Of a stretch of 41,901 bases of DNA, positions 1-8,069 are shown piece after piece. Position 1 is the first letter of the stretch. Every line of letters begins with the position of its first letter. Source of the DNA: a virus (Duplodnaviria; Heunggongvirae; Uroviricota; Caudoviricetes); IMG/VR virus record IMGVR_UViG_2541047898_000007, one strand, 5' to 3'. The notes under the pieces were generated by a model that made no database searches, was not told the DNA's origin, and saw nothing but the letters and a program-made list of their open reading frames with translations. Made by a program: the position numbers and the translations under genes.

Positions 1-1194
1 ATGATCACCGACACAAAGCTCAGGAAGGCGCTCGGCAAGAAAAGAGATGATATCGAGATTATTTCTGATTCGCACGGGCTCAACGCCAGAATCAGCCAGG
101 CCGGAAAAATATCATTTTTCTATCGGTATCGCTGGGCCGGTAAAGCGGTAAAACTCAATGTTGGTGATTATCCTGCAATGAGTATCACCCAGGCAAGAGA
201 GCGTCGCCAACAATTCAGAAACTGGTTAACTGAGGGACTGGATCCGCGAGAGCAGGTGAAGCTGGATAAGCAGACCCGACAGGAAGCGATGTCCGTTGCC
301 GAAGCGTTCAATTACTGGATTGAAAGGCACTGTATCGCTAACGGGCTAGTTAAAGTCGATTACTATCGCCAGGTGTTTGAGAAACATATCGCCGAACCGA
401 TGAAGAATGTCAAAGTCGATAACACAGCGAAAATGCACTGGATCAACGTCTTCGATTCTATAGAAAGCAGGGTGATGGCTCATTACATGCTTTCGCTGTG
501 CAAACGGGCGTTTAGGTTCTGCGTTAACAGAAGTGTGATCGCCTCAAACCCACTCGAGGGATTACTGCCATCTGATGTCGGGCAAAAGCCTAAAAAGAGA
601 ACTCGCAGGATGGACGATGACGATCTGCGCAAAATCTATCAGTGGTTGAAAAGCCATATGTCGATAGAGTCCGTTTTCCTGGTGAAATTTATTATGCTTA
701 CCGGATGCCGTACGGCTGAGATTCGACTTAGTGAGAGATCATGGTTTCGATTGGATGATAATGAGTGGGTCGTGCCTGCGGGCAGTTATAAAACTCGGGT
801 ACATATTAGAAGGGGACTCTCAGACGCCGCCGTTAACCTGGTCAGAAATCACCTCAAGAAAATAAACACCAATCACCTGGTGACTTCACAACGTAAAATT
901 GATGGCGGGATCAAAGATTCGCCCGTTCATTCACCTGTGGCATCCAATTACGCCCGTTCTATTTGGAATGGAACAGGTATGGCAGAGTGGTCGCTTCATG
1001 ATATGAGGCGGACGATAGCCACAAATCTCTCTGAGTTAGGTTGCCCGCCGCACGTAATTGAAAAGCTGCTCGGGCATCAGATGGTGGGGGTTATGGCGCA
1101 TTACAACCTTCATGACTATATCGATGATCAGAAACACTGGCTCCGCGTTTGGCAGAGCCATCTTGAAGAGATCATCGGAGAGCCCTTCAGTTAA
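1..1194 (+). CDS. int: Phage tyrosine integrase (site-specific recombinase); starts at base 1 so the 5' end may coincide with the window edge
   Basis: 397 aa ORF; C-terminal catalytic region with HDMRRT...LLGH...HY signature typical of tyrosine recombinases; N-terminal arm-binding-like region; position at prophage edge. Confidence 0.85.
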
Positions 1195-1433
1195 TTTATC
1201 TTCTTTTTATCCTCCCACTCTTTGATTGACTCAGAGCGCCAGCGGTTAGGGTTGCCGGGCCAGTCAGGGGGTGGGAACGGGCATACGAAGCCCCGAGGCA
1301 TTGTGTCTGCACTTTGCCATGACCAAAGGGTTTTGCGTGAAATTTTGTAGCGACTGGTCAGGTCTGACGTTACCAAAATATCATCCATAGCTCTCTCCAG
1401 TTGCCCGTTCGGGCCATTCAAAATCTTTTTCAA
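1191..1433 (-). CDS. AlpA-like excisionase / small DNA-binding regulator
   Basis: 80 aa; motif ISRKTLWSW followed by Pro-rich PFPPP...RW resembles AlpA/Xis-type helix-turn-helix proteins; 4 bp overlap with int stop, convergent. Confidence 0.55.
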
Positions 1434-1672
1434 CCAACCTGCCCGGGCAGGGAGCGGAGACGGCGCATGCCGGTCATCGCTGTGGCCACGTAGCTCGCCT
1501 TTCGGTTCACCACCTCCACCCAGACTTTCACGCCTTCAACCTTCACCGTATAAGTCTCTTTCATCTTGCTTCGCCCATAGTCGCCATATGTTTGCAAGTG
1601 AGCTGCCAGCGCGATGTCGCATGCTTGGCGAGCTAAAGGTGATTGCTTACTTCCTCGATTGATCAGTCGCAT
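1430..1672 (-). CDS. Hypothetical small protein
   Basis: 80 aa ORF translationally coupled (4 bp overlap) to the xis-like gene; no recognisable motif. Confidence 0.35.
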   Translation of the reverse strand: MRLINRGSKQSPLARQACDIALAAHLQTYGDYGRSKMKETYTVKVEGVKVWVEVVNRKASYVATAMTGMRRLRSLPGQVG

Positions 1673-1710: not shown

Positions 1711-2829
1711 TCAGGCCACGTATTCCGGTTTCATATCCGCCAGGGTGATGCTGAATTGATCGTGCAGTTCATCGCCTAAGTGACGCTTTGAAGATGCAAG
1801 CATGCGCTCGGCTTCAGCGAACCGTTCGGCTGCATGCGGCTCGTCGGGCTGGGGCAGGGATTTAATAGCCTCCTCAACCTTGTTGCGTGCATCCACTAGG
1901 TAATAACGCTTTACGGCTTTGTTTTTCAGCTCGGTGAATAGTGCGGATCCCAGCGTAGCTTTCGCCGTTTCAATGTCGGCACGCAGCGATTTGGCGCTAT
2001 CCACGTCCTGAGCAGATTCGATGCGTTCGCGGAAATCATCGGCAAGAGAGTCGACATTTACCGACGATTCCTGTGCGCTTTGCGTGGTTGTGACGGTGTC
2101 ACCTGAGATATCAGCCAGGCTAACGCGTTGCGGCGTTGGGTTGATCTCTTTTTCTGTGCGCTGTTCAATCTCATCAGGGGTGTACACACCAAGAACAACT
2201 GCAGGGCAATATAGGCGCGCCCAGTATTTGAGTGCCAGATAAGCGATCTGCTGTTTCGGGTTTGATACCCAAAGTGGAGAATTACGTGTGATTACGCTGG
2301 AGAGGAAAACAGGCTCTCCCCAGGTGATATCACTTTCACCGCGAATAACGGCACCTACCCGTACCGACAGTCCTTGTTCATCAGCACTTTCCCAACCGCG
2401 TACCATTTCTTTCTTGTCGTACGTCCCGCCACCTTTCGCAGGCTTTTTAACGGTTATCTCGCGGCTGCTGGCACATTTCGACCAGTCGCCCTCGTACTCA
2501 TAGTGAAAGCGGCCAACGATGGCGTTTGAGCTGGAGATCACCGCATTAACCAGTTGCGCTTCGTATCCCAGGACACCGTTAACCAGGTGCGTCTTTTGCG
2601 CCACGGCGTAAGGGTTCATACCCCACTGCATCGCCTGCATGATGATGGCCATGCAGTCTGCCGGATTGCCGCGGAGGTGCTCAGGCACCGTTACGGCTGC
2701 CTGTGCCATCAACCCGGCGACAGACTGAAGCTGGGTTAAAGCCTGCACGTTGAAAATGGCATTGCTGGCTGAGATCGTGTTTGGAGTCTGCTGTTCAGCG
2801 GTTACGATATTCGTGTTTTCCATCATCAT
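1711..2829 (-). CDS. Single-strand annealing protein, Bet/Red-beta (RecT superfamily), with extended acidic C-terminal region
   Basis: 372 aa; segment CMAIIMQAMQWGMNPY...NGVLGYEAQ resembles the lambda Bet core (FIALLIVANQYGLNPW); lies immediately downstream of a large exonuclease gene as in recET/red operons. Confidence 0.6.
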   Translation of the reverse strand: MMMENTNIVTAEQQTPNTISASNAIFNVQALTQLQSVAGLMAQAAVTVPEHLRGNPADCMAIIMQAMQWGMNPYAVAQKTHLVNGVLGYEAQLVNAVISSSNAIVGRFHYEYEGDWSKCASSREITVKKPAKGGGTYDKKEMVRGWESADEQGLSVRVGAVIRGESDITWGEPVFLSSVITRNSPLWVSNPKQQIAYLALKYWARLYCPAVVLGVYTPDEIEQRTEKEINPTPQRVSLADISGDTVTTTQSAQESSVNVDSLADDFRERIESAQDVDSAKSLRADIETAKATLGSALFTELKNKAVKRYYLVDARNKVEEAIKSLPQPDEPHAAERFAEAERMLASSKRHLGDELHDQFSITLADMKPEYVA

Positions 2830-2834
2830 TCCCC

Positions 2835-5800
2835 TTATGCCTGAGTACGCAGCGCTTCAAGGCGGCGCAGGTCGAAGTCGTTCAGTTCGTCGGTGTAGTC
2901 AGCAGTGATTGGCGCTGGCCATTCACCTGTGTCGAATCCGGTTGCGATATTGCGCATCGCTTTGCGGTACTCGAGCATACCCAGCTCCAGTAGTTCAGCG
3001 GATGCCTCGATGATGGCGATCCAGTGGTAGTTCTCGTCTTTGTTGACGAAAATCCAGAAGAACTGATCCAGCGCTGCGGTTTCGCAGTACATAGCCGCGC
3101 TCAGGTGATAATCACGTTCAATAATTTCCCGGTGTAGCCTGGCGCGCAGGCTTTCCTGCTTAACATTCCACATGCTGATGGTTTTCAGGTCTGCACCTAT
3201 ACGCACGCCATCCAGGTCGATCTCAAGGTCAGGGCGCACACGAACTTCCAAGCCCGTCTCCTCGTCAAAACCAAAGTAGCTCACCTCAACGGCTCGGCTA
3301 GGGTGGGTCAGCAGCATGCCGGCGGTCGGGTGTGCCAGAAGCGCTTTTTGAATATTCAGCGCGGTGCTCAGCTGCTGGCGGGTGACCAGCACTTTTCCTT
3401 CCGGGTTATCGCGCCAGGCATCCAGCAGTTCGTCGGCAAATACGGCATCTGGTTTGACTGCCTTCACGGCCTGGATCATGTCTGCTTTGGTACCGGACAC
3501 TTTCAGTGGTGCCGGTTTCTGTGCTTCCTGAGCCACAAGGTCAGGGTTGATGATTGCCAACTGCTCCAGCAGCGCGTCACGGCTGCCGCTGGTTTTAACC
3601 GGCGGCGGCAGGGTGGCGTTGTACTCTTTAATGCATGCCTTCATTGCCGTCGCCGTCTGCTTCTGGTCACCATCAATACGCTGGAAGTCAGCTGGCAGCG
3701 CCATATAGTTCTGTGCCGTTTCTTCCAGGTTAGCGCCAAGCGGAACCTGCGGCGGCAGGGTGGCGTTGTACTCTTCCAGTAACACCTTGATGTCGTCGGC
3801 AGACAGCAGCGCCGGCAGGCTGGCATTGTGCTCATCGATAAAGGCGCGCAGGGTCGCGGCCGTTGTGAATGCGCCTTCAGGGATCACCGGTTCAACGCTG
3901 AATTCTGCGTCCAGTAGTTCAGGCTGCAACGCCAGCGCATGCACCAAGTTGCCCATGTCCAGCACCGCTGAGCGCTCTTTGACGATGGTTTTCTCTACGT
4001 GGCGCGCATTGAAGTACATCAGCGAAACGCGCGCATCTTTCACCTGGGTTGAGCTGATGCCGTTGGCGGCGTGGTAAACCTCGTTTGGCAGCCCTTCATA
4101 GCGGCCTGGCTCGAAATAAGCGGGATAAACAACAGCTGGTTCGTCAGATTGCGCTTCTGGCTCGGTTTGTGCTGCAACTGGTTCGGTTTGGCTTACAGAA
4201 TCGCTATTTTTGGCGACAGAATCCGTATTCTGGTCTACATCGTCCTTCTGGCTGGTATCTGACTCTTCACCAGACTCCAGACTGCTTTCGCCTGGCTGTA
4301 CTTCATCACCAGCTTGTTTTTCATCACTGACAGTTTCTTGAACCTGCACATTGCTGGTGGTCTCCGTAGCCTTTTTCGTGCCATGAGTTGCTGAGTTCTG
4401 CAGCAAAGCCGTAACGTCGAATATTCCGTTGCCGACATTTTTAACCAGTTCTTGTTCGACTTTCTGCGGTTGTGCTGCCGCTTCCTCTGCGCGGCGGCGT
4501 GCTCCTTCTTCACGCACGCGTTGCAGGTTCTCTTCGTGAGTGCAGAAGGATTTGCGCGGAGACTCCTTACCTTCAGGTTGGGGAATTTCCTGTGCTGCGG
4601 GTTCAGCCTCATGCAACGGCAATAACTCGACCGCGGAATTGAACGCGGCTGTCATGGTCTGGTTAACAAATTCCAGGTGAGCGACAGGAGTTAAATGAAT
4701 ATTTTCCGGTGCGATACGTACCAGGTTAAAAATAGCCGTGCGGTTAACACCCAGAACGCCTGGCTGATTGCGCAGGATGTTGCTCCATGATTTCCATGGT
4801 TCTTCTTTTTTGGTCACGATTTCTTTAGCGCGACGAAGAATGCTGCCCGGGATCTCGAAGTGGTTGAAGTCCATAGGCAGAAGGGCACACGCAATCTCTA
4901 AATCGAGAGTGTCCAGTGTGTGGTGTGCGTCAGGTCCACGGTCAGTGACGTAACCGCCGTCGGCATTAGTGCCGGAATCAGTACGCTGCACACTACTGAT
5001 GCGATTACCGGCGGCCCATTCGCGAACGAGGATACCGCGGTCGATGTGATCTGTAGCGAACCACAATTTCAAAAACTGGATTAAGGTTGCGAGTTCAGGG
5101 ATTTTTCCATCGACAGGGAAGACTTTCTTAACGGCATTCACGACTTTATGAATATCGTGCTCAATGGCTTTTTTGAATGCTTCCACATTCTCAGCTGCCA
5201 GCAGCAGGTTCTGGACGTACGCGTCATCGGTGTCCATCTCAAGGCGGACAATCTCATTTTTCTGCCCTGCGTCGATGTGATAGAGATATTCACCATCACC
5301 GATGAACTGAGCCAGTACGCGCTGGCGGAATGGCAGGGTGGCAACAACGATCAGGTTCGGTTGCTGTGTCTGCTGGGATTGCTCTTCGGTATCGACTTCA
5401 CCATCAACGACGCCACCTTCTGCCCGGCCGTTCTCGTCGGTCTGGATACCGTCCTCAACAGTGAGATCTTGACCCGTTGTAACGTCAGCAGCGTTGCTGG
5501 TTTCAGTTTTGAGCAACTGCAACTTACCACTGCGCCAGTCTTCTACCAGTTGATTGCGGTCACCGGCATCGGTGTTCACCCAGTCAGACATGAATGCAGC
5601 GATCAATCTTGGCTCGTGCTCTTCGTCTGGTGTGAAAATGTCCTTAACCGCCCGAATCATTTTCCACTCAGCATTCAGGCTGAGTTTGGCGGTCGCGGGC
5701 ACATCGTTCCTTGCCACAAGCAGGCTATGGAGATATGTATTGCCTTCATCCAGTGACATTTCGCTGGCAGCCAACTGCTGCTCTTTAGTGACGTGGGTTT

Positions 5801-6224
5801 GGTATTTATCGTTCATCAGATGGACGGCAAAGCGGACCGCTGGAGTACGGTTTTCAACCGGGACAATTTCGGACGCAGTCGCATCTTCAACGATTACGGT
5901 CGGAGTAGGTGTGTAGGGGGCGTCAACGGAACCAGTAGACACACCAGCGGCTTTTGGCAGCCAGGTGCGCCCATCGTCCTGAAGCTCGTAGCGATCACAC
6001 CAGGTAAAATCAACTTCACCTTCTTTCGGCAGGCCGTCGACAACTGGGAAATCAGTGCGAATCGGTTTGGCGTAGTCCTTACCCCGACCTGTTTCGATAC
6101 CTGCATCTTCCAGCGCAACATCCAGCATCAGATTGGCGCGAGCCTCGGTTTTAGCAGTGAACCAGACCACTGCATCTTGCTTTCCGGATTTCTGAGTGGC
6201 TTTAACCACATTAAAGAATTCCAT
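2835..6224 (-). CDS. Large RecE-like exonuclease (exonuclease VIII-like) with long acidic low-complexity N-terminal and central region
   Basis: 1129 aa ORF directly upstream of, and co-oriented with, the Bet/RecT-like gene; call rests on synteny and size, catalytic motif not verified by eye. Confidence 0.5.
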   Translation of the reverse strand: MEFFNVVKATQKSGKQDAVVWFTAKTEARANLMLDVALEDAGIETGRGKDYAKPIRTDFPVVDGLPKEGEVDFTWCDRYELQDDGRTWLPKAAGVSTGSVDAPYTPTPTVIVEDATASEIVPVENRTPAVRFAVHLMNDKYQTHVTKEQQLAASEMSLDEGNTYLHSLLVARNDVPATAKLSLNAEWKMIRAVKDIFTPDEEHEPRLIAAFMSDWVNTDAGDRNQLVEDWRSGKLQLLKTETSNAADVTTGQDLTVEDGIQTDENGRAEGGVVDGEVDTEEQSQQTQQPNLIVVATLPFRQRVLAQFIGDGEYLYHIDAGQKNEIVRLEMDTDDAYVQNLLLAAENVEAFKKAIEHDIHKVVNAVKKVFPVDGKIPELATLIQFLKLWFATDHIDRGILVREWAAGNRISSVQRTDSGTNADGGYVTDRGPDAHHTLDTLDLEIACALLPMDFNHFEIPGSILRRAKEIVTKKEEPWKSWSNILRNQPGVLGVNRTAIFNLVRIAPENIHLTPVAHLEFVNQTMTAAFNSAVELLPLHEAEPAAQEIPQPEGKESPRKSFCTHEENLQRVREEGARRRAEEAAAQPQKVEQELVKNVGNGIFDVTALLQNSATHGTKKATETTSNVQVQETVSDEKQAGDEVQPGESSLESGEESDTSQKDDVDQNTDSVAKNSDSVSQTEPVAAQTEPEAQSDEPAVVYPAYFEPGRYEGLPNEVYHAANGISSTQVKDARVSLMYFNARHVEKTIVKERSAVLDMGNLVHALALQPELLDAEFSVEPVIPEGAFTTAATLRAFIDEHNASLPALLSADDIKVLLEEYNATLPPQVPLGANLEETAQNYMALPADFQRIDGDQKQTATAMKACIKEYNATLPPPVKTSGSRDALLEQLAIINPDLVAQEAQKPAPLKVSGTKADMIQAVKAVKPDAVFADELLDAWRDNPEGKVLVTRQQLSTALNIQKALLAHPTAGMLLTHPSRAVEVSYFGFDEETGLEVRVRPDLEIDLDGVRIGADLKTISMWNVKQESLRARLHREIIERDYHLSAAMYCETAALDQFFWIFVNKDENYHWIAIIEASAELLELGMLEYRKAMRNIATGFDTGEWPAPITADYTDELNDFDLRRLEALRTQA
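3603..3840. repeat. Intragenic direct repeats in the RecE-like gene (two perfect 26 bp copies at 3603-3628 and 3750-3775, a third degenerate copy near 3810-3840)
   Basis: cggcggcagggtggcgttgtactctt occurs twice 147 bp apart; corresponds to repeated peptide unit containing EYNATLPP. Confidence 0.7.
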
Positions 6225-6363
6225 GTGAGATCCTCATTTTTGGGTGTTAGAATCCCCGGACCATTGATAGCGCCCATTGGGTTAACTTTGGTTTTAATGT
6301 TGTTTCCGGTGTAACTTTGGTCGGTACCACCGGACGTAGATCCCGCCTTGCGCGGGGTTTTCG

Positions 6364-6525
6364 TTATGCTTCGTGGGCCATCTGGTCGAACGAAGCGCAA
6401 CGTACTGAACAGTAATCACGTTGCTCGCGTTTCAACTGCGTGCCGTGGATAAAGAGCAGTTCGTTTTTAACTTCCTTCCCTTGCTTGATCGGCTTGCGGC
6501 AGTACGCGCATTTTTTCTCCTGCAT
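6364..6525 (-). CDS. Small zinc-ribbon-like protein (53 aa), absent from the ORF track because it is under 60 aa
   Basis: Manual translation of the reverse strand gives MQEKKCAYCRKPIKQGKEVKNELLFIHGTQLKREQRDYCSVRCASFDQMAHEA with CxxC...CxxxC spacing; sits in the leftward early operon. Confidence 0.4.
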   Translation of the reverse strand: MQEKKCAYCRKPIKQGKEVKNELLFIHGTQLKREQRDYCSVRCASFDQMAHEA

Positions 6526-6536
6526 AACTCACTCCG

Positions 6537-6845
6537 TTAATGGCTAAGGCCATGTCCTAAACCGTTTAGATAAACCTCAACCAGCAAATCTTTGGTGTAG
6601 GTACGTTCGATGCCACGGTGAAGATACAGGCGACCGCGTGCGTTAGCAGATGCGGTCCAGGTTGAGTCTTTGTGTTTTACAAGCATCCCCGGCTGAACTG
6701 CGCCGCGGTTTACTGTCTGTGTACCGTAGTGCTGATGAACCATGATGTACTCCAGTTTTTCTGAGTGAACTTCGCTGGTGTTGCTGCGGCGCTGATCTTC
6801 ACGGTTGAGCGCTTTAACTCTGCAATTCACCACCGCGAAGCTCAC
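6537..6845 (-). CDS. Hypothetical early leftward protein
   Basis: 102 aa ORF, first sizeable ORF downstream of the predicted PL; no recognisable motif. Confidence 0.3.
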   Translation of the reverse strand: MSFAVVNCRVKALNREDQRRSNTSEVHSEKLEYIMVHQHYGTQTVNRGAVQPGMLVKHKDSTWTASANARGRLYLHRGIERTYTKDLLVEVYLNGLGHGLSH

Positions 6846-7352: not shown

Positions 7353-7378
7353 AATAAAAAACCCGGCAAGCCGGGTTT
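7353..7378 (-). terminator. Rho-independent terminator immediately after the cI stop
   Basis: Plus strand aaaaaacccggcaagccgggttt; on the minus strand a GC hairpin (cccggc / gccggg) followed by a T-run. Confidence 0.6.
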
Positions 7379-8069
7379 ATGCGAAGCGCTTGTAGTCTAT
7401 TGATTGTCTCAGTAGCACTTTAGCCATTACGTAGAACTGATCTTCGTCTTCTGACTCAATATACCATTTCTCGTAGATAGGGTTGTCTGAGATAACAGCA
7501 AGCCGATCTCTTTGCATCTGAAGCCTTTTGACGTGCAGAGTTTTTCCGAACACAAATACGTAAACACCATCACCATCAAAATGAGTCACGCCAGTATCAA
7601 CAAAAATTTGATCTCCTGGTGAGATGGTTCCATCCATGCTGTCGCCGTTCACGGTAATAACTTTTACATTAGCTGCGGGGCGATTTCCGAAAAGTGCGCG
7701 AGCCTGTTCAGTTGTGTATTCGATTGCTCTTATGGTTTCGATAAAATCGCTGGTAACTAGCGAGCCAGGACCGGCGCTGGCCTTAACGTCAAGCACATCC
7801 ACGCGGTATATCTCATTCAAAACTGGTTTAATTTGGTATGGCGTGTTTACTTCGCGAATGCCAGATTCAAACATTTCACCTTGTCCTGTTGAAAGCCATT
7901 CAGGACGCACACCAAGAACAGATGCGATCTCTACTGTTTTTCGTGAGCCTTTCGCACCTTTAAGCAATTTATTTACGCTGGACTGAGCCATACCAACATC
8001 TTTCGCCAGCTTAGCCTGCGTATATCCAGCGACGTCCATTGCGTGCCCTAAGCGTTCTGAAAATCCCAT
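7377..8069 (-). CDS. cI: CI-like prophage repressor (N-terminal HTH, C-terminal S24 LexA-like autopeptidase domain)
   Basis: 230 aa; N-terminal QAKLAKDVGMAQSSVNKL HTH-like segment; C-terminal VNGDSM ... KRL segment with Ser/Lys dyad arrangement typical of S24 peptidases; divergent from a cro-like gene across an operator-rich region. Confidence 0.85.
   Translation of the reverse strand: MGFSERLGHAMDVAGYTQAKLAKDVGMAQSSVNKLLKGAKGSRKTVEIASVLGVRPEWLSTGQGEMFESGIREVNTPYQIKPVLNEIYRVDVLDVKASAGPGSLVTSDFIETIRAIEYTTEQARALFGNRPAANVKVITVNGDSMDGTISPGDQIFVDTGVTHFDGDGVYVFVFGKTLHVKRLQMQRDRLAVISDNPIYEKWYIESEDEDQFYVMAKVLLRQSIDYKRFA

Follow-up and report, generated by a model that had tools for sequence, protein, structure and literature searches.

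Rac RecE, exonuclease VIII of Escherichia coli K-12 (b1350; 866 amino acids [aa]; nuclease domain structure, PDB 3H4R), was the reference for our analysis of a recE-family gene in the virus record IMGVR_UViG_2541047898_000007, a stretch of 41,901 nucleotides (nt) that we call the window. RecET is widely used for recombineering and direct cloning; to our knowledge, structural study of RecE has been limited to the Rac nuclease domain. Roles of Rac His-652 and Lys-761 are described in the RecE literature. According to a 2023 review, the Rac rim loop lies on the double-stranded DNA (dsDNA)-entry side of the central channel and is thought to capture dsDNA; these loops show disorder in the crystal and partial order in complexes with DNA.

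The window protein, with 1129 aa, follows the segment order of Rac RecE: an Exonuc_VIII domain, a helical module, a mid domain, an acidic linker, and a C-terminal PD-(D/E)XK domain. It also has the same active-site H, D, D, and K residues, and its gene likewise has a recT-family gene downstream and kil and ydaE upstream. It differs in carrying a second copy of the helical module together with a linker, where Rac RecE has one module, in its longer rim loop, and in its RecT partner, which is without BLASTP similarity to Rac RecT. RecE proteins of Gifsy-1, HK225, mEp237, and PHB10 belong to the same subfamily as the window protein (141-aa insert core, 78 to 100% identical; nuclease halves, 83 to 100% identical). 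They are annotated, and we found no biochemical characterization of them.

Three further groups of nucleases bear on the comparison. Stand-alone DUF3799 (PF12684) nucleases of 314 to 340 aa (P0241, P0245, and P0263) share the nuclease fold family and, at the same site, a helix-linker-helix of SAP type with the motif P-[DE]-A-[VIL]-F-x-[DE]-E after it; unlike the window protein, they are without the RecE N-terminal region and have a single canonical SAP unit of ∼50 aa in place of a multiplied array. Lambda Exo (Red-alpha) is also a ring-shaped processive 5′-to-3′ exonuclease that works with an annealase and whose rim loops contact downstream duplex DNA, but it is a trimeric protein of 226 aa in which these loops are short, and it lacks both an N-terminal region and a SAP. 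The nuclease of FAN1 acts in the 5′-to-3′ direction. In FAN1, too, a DNA-binding SAP motif accompanies a PD-(D/E)XK (VRR-nuc) 5′ exonuclease/flap nuclease, but FAN1 belongs to an unrelated nuclease subfamily, its SAP is a separate upstream domain rather than a nuclease insertion, and it has neither a ring oligomer nor a repeat array.

On balance, we think it probable that the window gene encodes a RecE-family 5′-to-3′ dsDNA exonuclease of an HK225-like lambdoid E. coli prophage, one that grew by modular accretion and acquired no new function, in which a SAP-derived array probably captures duplex DNA and direct repeats give rise to alleles with 0 to 3 units.

A RecE-family exonuclease that is not the Rac equivalog

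The gene, the two parts of its nuclease domain, and the active-site codons are located as follows.

2835..6224, minus strand: recE-family gene, an open reading frame (ORF) of 1129 aa including the stop codon; protein start, MEFFNVVK
3897..4124, minus strand: nuclease domain, N-terminal part (aa 701 to 776), aligning with Rac RecE 595 to 669 and with 3H4R chain residues 5 to 72
3939-3941, minus strand: His762, invariant, equivalent to Rac His-652
2835..3380, minus strand: nuclease domain, C-terminal part (aa 949 to 1129), DUF3799, aligning with Rac 693 to 850
3228-3230, minus strand: D999, equivalent to Rac D748
3189-3191, minus strand: D1012, equivalent to Rac D759
3183-3185, minus strand: K1014, equivalent to Rac K761

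Pfam model PF06630 (Exonuc_VIII) matches aa 4 to 102 (E = 1.3e-32; 113.7 bits versus a cutoff of 25), and a second stretch, at approximately aa 287 to 339, matches the end of the same model. PF12684 (DUF3799, PDDEXK-like) covers aa 952 to 1104 (E = 7.8e-10; 39.3 bits versus a cutoff of 26), and the protein matches PHROG 607 with an E value of 0. BLASTP aligns it with Rac RecE in four collinear segments, with identities of 22 to 39% across the aligned segments and E values of 2e-11 and 3e-06 for those in the nuclease domain. The solved Rac domain, 3H4R, was matched by phmmer at an E value of 0.0023 and by a profile of 28 diverse homologues at 3.1e-11. H762, D999, D1012, and K1014 are invariant in the alignment of 28 diverse homologues. 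An Exonuc_VIII N terminus, a PD-(D/E)XK C terminus, the active-site residues, and a downstream RecT gene, all of which we looked for as marks of the RecE family, are present. Because the score against NCBIfam NF007259, the Rac RecE equivalog, stays below the cutoff (514.7 versus 1269 bits), we place the protein by sequence as a member of the RecE family and not as a Rac orthologue or equivalog.

Neither the gene nor its family assignment is new: RefSeq, HK225, and PHROG annotation cover both, and the name in use is correct. The DNA is 100% identical to a gene of E. coli HH107 that RefSeq names “RecE family exodeoxyribonuclease”; in 29 complete genomes, identity exceeds 99%. Phage HK225 has an annotated RecE that is likewise 1129 aa long (97% protein and 95.4% nt identity). 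A preliminary description, made from the window sequence without database searches, had called the product an unusually large RecE-like exonuclease on the basis of synteny with a recT-like gene only. The exonuclease call and the RecT-family neighbor both stand, whereas the restriction to synteny does not: homology is direct (Pfam, PHROG, BLASTP, and the 3H4R profile), and the domain search that the description proposed located a C-terminal PD-(D/E)XK domain (PF12684, 3H4R). The 1129-aa ORF is indeed larger than Rac RecE, for which the description's figure of about 866 aa was correct, but its size is not unusual, since relatives from Enterobacter, Leclercia, and Metakosakonia reach 1217 to 1255 aa.

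In E. coli NZ_OZ510750.1, the recE match extends only to nt 2739 of the 3390-nt query, and the stretch under the match is annotated “RecE family exodeoxyribonuclease” together with “recombinase RecT”; this suggests a deletion taking the 3′ end of recE.

The rim loop carries a SAP-derived helix array

As judged from alignment, the 263 residues by which the protein exceeds Rac RecE come from two sources, an N-terminal duplication and an insertion in the nuclease domain. The second of these contributes roughly 140 residues at the rim loop.

3381..3896, minus strand: expanded rim loop, SAP-derived helix array (aa 777 to 948), delimited as the gap between two 3H4R/Rac matches

3H4R and Rac RecE align to aa 704 to ∼784 and then again from ∼943, leaving an unmatched insert of ∼155 aa where Rac RecE has 15 aa. 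With the whole loop taken, window aa 775 to 948 (174 aa) correspond to Rac 665 to 698 (34 aa), and because of this correspondence, we interpret the array as an elaboration of the Rac-type rim loop.

To survey the site, an exhaustive search was made with aa 699 to 1129, and the segment between the nuclease halves was measured in the 2592 homologues obtained. Insert lengths fall into classes of 4 to 16 aa (15 in Rac), 43 to 60, 86, 106, 124 to 135, 155 to 164, 180, and 206 to 208 aa. Within the close clade, lengths of 57, 106, 155, 204 to 206, and 253 aa fit 8 + 49n.

Several lines of evidence point to SAP ancestry of the insert. One-unit inserts read as a classic SAP motif (e.g., TTEDIKAVLKECGEKVSGNKPELIERLKAV), and the distant stand-alone DUF3799 nucleases P0241, P0245, and P0263 have a Pfam SAP match at the same site (29.6 to 34.4 bits versus a cutoff of 23.9). 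A hidden Markov model (HMM) built only from eight distant SAP-type units gives the window protein a score of 52.4 bits, whereas shuffled copies reach 8.1 bits at most; it finds a full helix-linker-helix at aa 856 to 895 and a helix 2 with the trailing P-D-A-V-F-A-D-E motif at aa 901 to 944. An HMM that includes closer relatives adds helix-1-like units at aa 781 to 804 and 805 to 824. AlphaFold2 (AF2) predicts insert helices at aa 788 to 801, 808 to 821, 832 to 840, 857 to 869, 881 to 891, 893 to 900, 912 to 922, and 929 to 938, with predicted local distance difference test (pLDDT) scores of 80 to 94. A SAP domain has two short helices connected by an extended linker of ∼8 to 11 aa and a conserved Gly; the predicted geometry is of this type, with a helix (857 to 869), a linker (870 to 880), and a helix (881 to 891), and with G911 preceding the helix at 912 to 922. 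Among 28 homologues, down to 34% identity, I796, N800, G911, and P925 are invariant in the insert; K913, conserved in at least 90%, forms a SAP-like “G-x-K” position with G911. From these alignments, we conclude that the insert sits at the rim loop and descends from a SAP domain.

We found no paper in the searched literature that contains both “SAP domain” and RecE, and the review of the family is silent on an insertion. Two features thus appear undescribed in that literature, namely, the identity of the rim loop as a SAP domain or an array derived from one in most RecE/DUF3799 nucleases and the copy-number polymorphism of this loop.

The array could instead be functionally neutral, a disordered surface loop that tolerates insertions while short direct repeats expand and contract without consequence. 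Alleles with 0 to 3 units do occur side by side among close relatives, the Rac loop is short and disordered, 34 residues at this position are enough for Rac RecE to work, and in another clade the site is occupied by an unrelated array of repeats. Neutrality sits poorly with an insert length of 155 aa that is the same in ∼25 clusters, down to 53% identity; with the invariant or nearly invariant residues I796, N800, G911, K913, and P925 inside the insert; with the high AF2 confidence of the insert; and with a bona fide SAP domain kept at the same site in distant nucleases. We consider it unlikely.

The unrelated array of that separate clade (P0176, P0177, P0182, P0186, P0192, and P0200) is a repeat of ∼24 aa with a consensus like KPENQSLKPSDKVIAAVEDWIAAG. 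It is present in 1 to 7 copies (KPENQSLKPSDK...) spanning 43 to 180 aa. Because a separate clade has an unrelated array here, alignment marks the rim-loop site as a general hot spot for repeat arrays.

Direct repeats and copy-number alleles

Within the array, the window carries the following repeats; a further pair lies in the N-terminal half.

3603..3628: first copy of an exact 26-bp direct repeat
3750..3775: second copy of this repeat, 147 nt from the first
3804..3835: degenerate third copy, 75% identity over 32 nt, encoding IDEHNASLP, a further 60 nt on
3627..3773, minus strand: 147-bp (49-aa) copy-number-variable unit, one copy here
5289-5302 and 5397-5410: 14-bp near-repeat pair, 108 nt apart, bounding a 36-aa deletion

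An exact pair of 26-mers in 3.4 kb has a chance expectation of ∼1e-9. The perfect repeats and the degenerate third copy are where the preliminary description had placed them, but its tandem triplication of a ∼50-aa unit is not what the protein contains. The [YH]NA[TS]LP motif occurs at aa 799, 819, and 868, at spacings of 20 and 49 aa, with only 9 to 18 residues in common, and Tandem Repeats Finder (TRF) does not report the EYNATLPP repeat as an array. What the 26-bp repeats flank is a 49-aa unit that is present once in the window, with the related third motif upstream.

This unit varies in number among relatives. In the 1178-aa allele of E. coli CUWW10, the 147 bp occur twice, in tandem and without a mismatch, and in twelve 90%-identity clusters of 1080 aa, the unit is precisely missing (...LEEYNATLPP/PVKTSG..., with the slash marking the junction), so that alleles of the window lineage measure 1080, 1129, and 1178 aa in steps of exactly 49 aa. 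Across clusters, insert lengths of 106, 155, 204, and 253 aa are exact multiples of the 49-aa unit apart. The unit is present two to three times in P0271, P0272, P0275, P0277, and P0288, and two- or three-unit alleles are found in other E. coli, Salmonella, and Citrobacter. Because the copies are identical within one protein and different between lineages, these expansions appear to be recent and independent. Comparison of sequences thus confirms natural alleles with 0, 1, 2, or 3 units and recombination-driven length variation, as the preliminary description had suggested from the repeats.

That description also allowed for the repeat region being an assembly artefact. Short repeats are prone to misassembly, and copy-number variants are rare; on the other side, some 20 independent complete genomes of E. 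coli carry an identical 561-bp region, phage HK225 has the same one-unit arrangement, and the variants, all in frame and in exact 147-bp steps, recur across species and data sources. The region is covered in 53 complete E. coli genomes: 51 carry a single unit, a further genome carries two, and in the remaining one the unit is absent. An artefact can be dismissed for practical purposes.

The 14-bp near-repeats bound a separate deletion. In 1093-aa alleles, such as that of UPEC85 (L002, E. coli UPEC85, 3001-6282), 36 aa between them are deleted at a GATGGTGAA microhomology. Such alleles make up 11 of the 120 clusters listed and are without aa 274 to 309, i.e., the end of an acidic linker and the start of the second helical module (module C, below); the deletion takes the predicted first helix of that module, yet it is widespread.

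A duplicated helical module in the N-terminal half

The other source of extra size lies upstream of the nuclease domain, where we distinguish the following segments.

5949..6224, minus strand: domain A (aa 1 to 92), small alpha/beta domain, start of Pfam Exonuc_VIII (Pfam; AF2)
5517..5867, minus strand: helical module copy 1, or B (aa 120 to 236), aligning with Rac RecE 120 to 230
5355..5516, minus strand: acidic disordered linker L1 (aa 237 to 290) (composition; AF2)
4989..5354, minus strand: helical module copy 2, or C (aa 291 to 412), paralogue of B (B-C comparison; AF2)
4611..4952, minus strand: helical mid domain D (aa 425 to 538), 30% identical to Rac RecE 241 to 351
4125..4589, minus strand: linker L2 (aa 546 to 700), a charged stretch and then an acidic, polar low-complexity tract (composition)
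4187-4229: 21-bp tandem duplication in linker L2 (TRF: 2 copies, 81% match)

Domain A is 39% identical to Rac RecE 6 to 87 and is modeled by AF2 as strands plus a helix at pLDDT 59 to 82; module B is modeled as a helical bundle at pLDDT 82 to 90, and the helices of mid domain D are at pLDDT 78 to 89. Self-comparison of the whole protein by BLAST gave no internal match, and the duplication came out only in a targeted comparison of B with C (29% identity; E = 2e-11). BLASTP aligns Rac RecE 182 to 248 to two places in the protein. In the AF2 models, B and C share the same succession of helices at an offset of 171 to 173 aa, both confidently predicted (pLDDT 82 to 93). Alignment and models together identify a ∼172-aa duplication of the N-terminal helical module, together with the acidic disordered linker L1, as one source of the extra size. 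A single module, equivalent to copy C, is present in the RecE proteins of Rac, Gifsy-1, mEp237, and a Klebsiella phage, the last three being 961 to 1012 aa long; by contrast, the segment map shows both modules in HK225, PHB10, and the window protein.

Relatives of >1200 aa reach their size through an additional duplication of mid domain D. Proteins from Enterobacter, Leclercia, and Metakosakonia (P0273, P0274, P0278 to P0282, P0284, and P0289; 1217 to 1255 aa) have B, C, and a duplicated D. Comparison of these architectures indicates that N-terminal domain duplication is recurrent within the RecE family.

The preliminary description had assigned the extra mass to the N terminus, as possible carrier of an additional function. 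The module duplication does lie there, but roughly 140 of the extra residues sit inside the nuclease domain, and alignment shows the N-terminal addition to be a duplicate of a module already present in Rac RecE instead of a new domain. DNA mimicry and anti-restriction were named as candidate functions. The protein is very acidic (net charge, −75; isoelectric point [pI], 4.7) with two long acidic tracts, as the description had noted (aa 237 to 290, net charge −11, pI 4.05; aa 601 to 700 within linker L2, net charge −17), and the literature assigns no function to the RecE N-terminal region. Rac RecE, however, is equally acidic (pI 4.7), and the tracts are predicted to be disordered linkers and not a folded mimic, with L1 at pLDDT 25 to 40. 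The added N-terminal mass repeats an existing RecE module; apart from some weak matches below threshold, Pfam, PHROG, and NCBIfam return only nuclease families of the RecE type; and we found no relative of the folded N-terminal domains among solved structures. A separate function of this kind is very improbable. For annotation, the message is that of an ordinary RecE-family gene whose size comes from domain duplication plus loop expansion, not from a hidden new function.

Other observations concern the N-terminal half. The 21-bp duplication in linker L2 encodes the ...NTDSVAKNSDSVSQ... segment and is another small repeat of the slippage type. The best-conserved stretch is aa 384 to 429 (∼4950-5070), with W388, D395, G397, W403, G406-N407-R408, R414...N420-A421-x-G423-G424, and ...T427-D428-R429. 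Within it, aa 414 to 424 form a Gly-rich loop that is disordered in AlphaFold and common to Rac RecE (RTASGANAGGGNLTDRG), and weak sub-threshold matches to DUF5669 and TIGR02647 fall on the same stretch, possibly a functional motif in the N-terminal part of RecE. PF27432.1 is listed in the precomputed annotation for most two-module homologues (P0001 and others). Its identification with the rim-loop insert was ruled out: 966-aa alleles keep the insert and are without PF27432.

A model for the rim-loop array

In the model that we favor, recE would be expressed from an early-left operon, kil-ydaE-recE-recT. By homology with Rac RecE, from which the oligomeric state is taken, a ring-shaped oligomer would resect DNA ends and hand the 3′ overhang to the RecT partner for single-strand annealing. 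Processive 5′-to-3′ dsDNA digestion by a toroidal tetramer would be expected of a RecE-family member. The N-terminal half would have grown by the ∼172-aa duplication of a helical module, together with an acidic disordered linker. At the rim loop, a SAP (helix-extended-helix) motif would have multiplied internally to give three helix-1-like units, a spacer helix, and two helix-2-like units. Since the array elaborates the rim loop on the dsDNA-entry side, we propose that it forms flexible arms round the channel mouth, probably aiding capture or holding of duplex DNA. The SAP domain of FAN1, which binds DNA in another PD-(D/E)XK nuclease, is a precedent. Through the 26-bp repeats flanking the 49-aa unit, whole units could be gained or lost by unequal recombination or replication slippage, and copy number may have a phenotypic effect.

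Several observations weigh against this model. The window insert stays below the Pfam SAP (PF02037) cutoff, at 14.5 versus 23.9 bits, with only helix 2 matching (aa 907 to 920), and for this reason, we speak of a SAP-derived array and not of a SAP domain. The array has a net charge of −8 and a pI of 4.6, and the 49-aa unit has a net charge of −2, values atypical for a DNA-binding surface. The unrelated repeat of the other clade could mean that the loop simply tolerates anything. Copy-number variants are rare (2 of the 53 complete E. coli genomes), which leaves adaptive “tuning” unproven. The nuclease core itself is at pLDDT <50 in AF2, on an alignment that was shallow for the C-terminal model (83 to 100% identity), and a Foldseek search with that model gave no match in the PDB below an E value of 0.07; because the core is poorly modeled, the nuclease fold assignment rests on sequence and profile homology.

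A further point is that a SAP domain may exchange DNA binding for binding of a partner, SLX4-MUS81 being an example. This opens another interpretation, in which the helix array is a protein interaction module for the long RecT partner or for a host factor, such as the single-stranded DNA (ssDNA)-binding protein SSB, and copy number changes valency. The array is net acidic, and at every Gifsy-type RecE locus examined, the partner is a long RecT (361 to 372 aa) that lacks BLASTP similarity to Rac RecT. That co-occurrence, however, is phylogenetically confounded and covers few loci. Moreover, the array sits in a loop on the dsDNA-entry side, whereas the annealase is expected at the ssDNA-exit face, by analogy with lambda Exo and Red-beta. 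We therefore regard a partner-binding role as quite unlikely and retain duplex capture as the preferred function.

A bolder extension of the duplex-capture model is that the rim loop is ancestrally SAP across RecE/DUF3799 nucleases; that in RecE of the Gifsy-1/HK225 type, it became a recombination-prone array whose number of units (0 to 3 extra) tunes the engagement of DNA ends or partners; and that the arrays of the other clade evolved independently. We offer this only tentatively and hold it to be rather doubtful. If true, it would describe a natural “processivity/end-capture dial” usable to improve RecET recombineering. Most relatives have a SAP-derived array at the rim loop, and nature has already sampled 0 to 3 extra units, so the allelic series offers a testable handle on DNA-end capture by RecE that is ready-made for engineering. 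A SAP-type rim loop with copy-number polymorphism is a modest, testable refinement of what is known of RecE and not a surprise.

RecT partner and prophage setting

The window looks like a near-complete lambdoid prophage (1-41901), and the following genes lie around recE.

1-1194, plus strand: integrase
1430-1672, minus strand: DUF4060 gene
1711..2829, minus strand: gene for the RecT-family partner annealase (372 aa), separated from upstream recE by 5 nt
6364-6525, minus strand: ydaE-like gene
6537-6845, minus strand: kil
7377-8069, minus strand: CI-like LexA/S24 repressor gene

The partner matches the Pfam RecT family (E = 2.5e-36) and PHROG 561. Both it and Rac RecT (269 aa) belong to Pfam RecT, and no BLASTP similarity between the two was detectable (best E value, 22). 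The partner has a C-terminal extension of ∼140 aa beyond the Pfam RecT domain (aa 39 to 228). The recE-recT order is common to HK225, Gifsy-1, PHB10, mEp237, and Rac, and the kil and ydaE homologues upstream of recE are arranged as in Rac and HK225. Beyond the repressor gene, rightward early genes and ORFs of morphogenesis size continue to the end of the window. An 80-aa ORF between the integrase and DUF4060 genes (1191-1433, minus strand) has no Pfam match; by its position, it could encode an excisionase.

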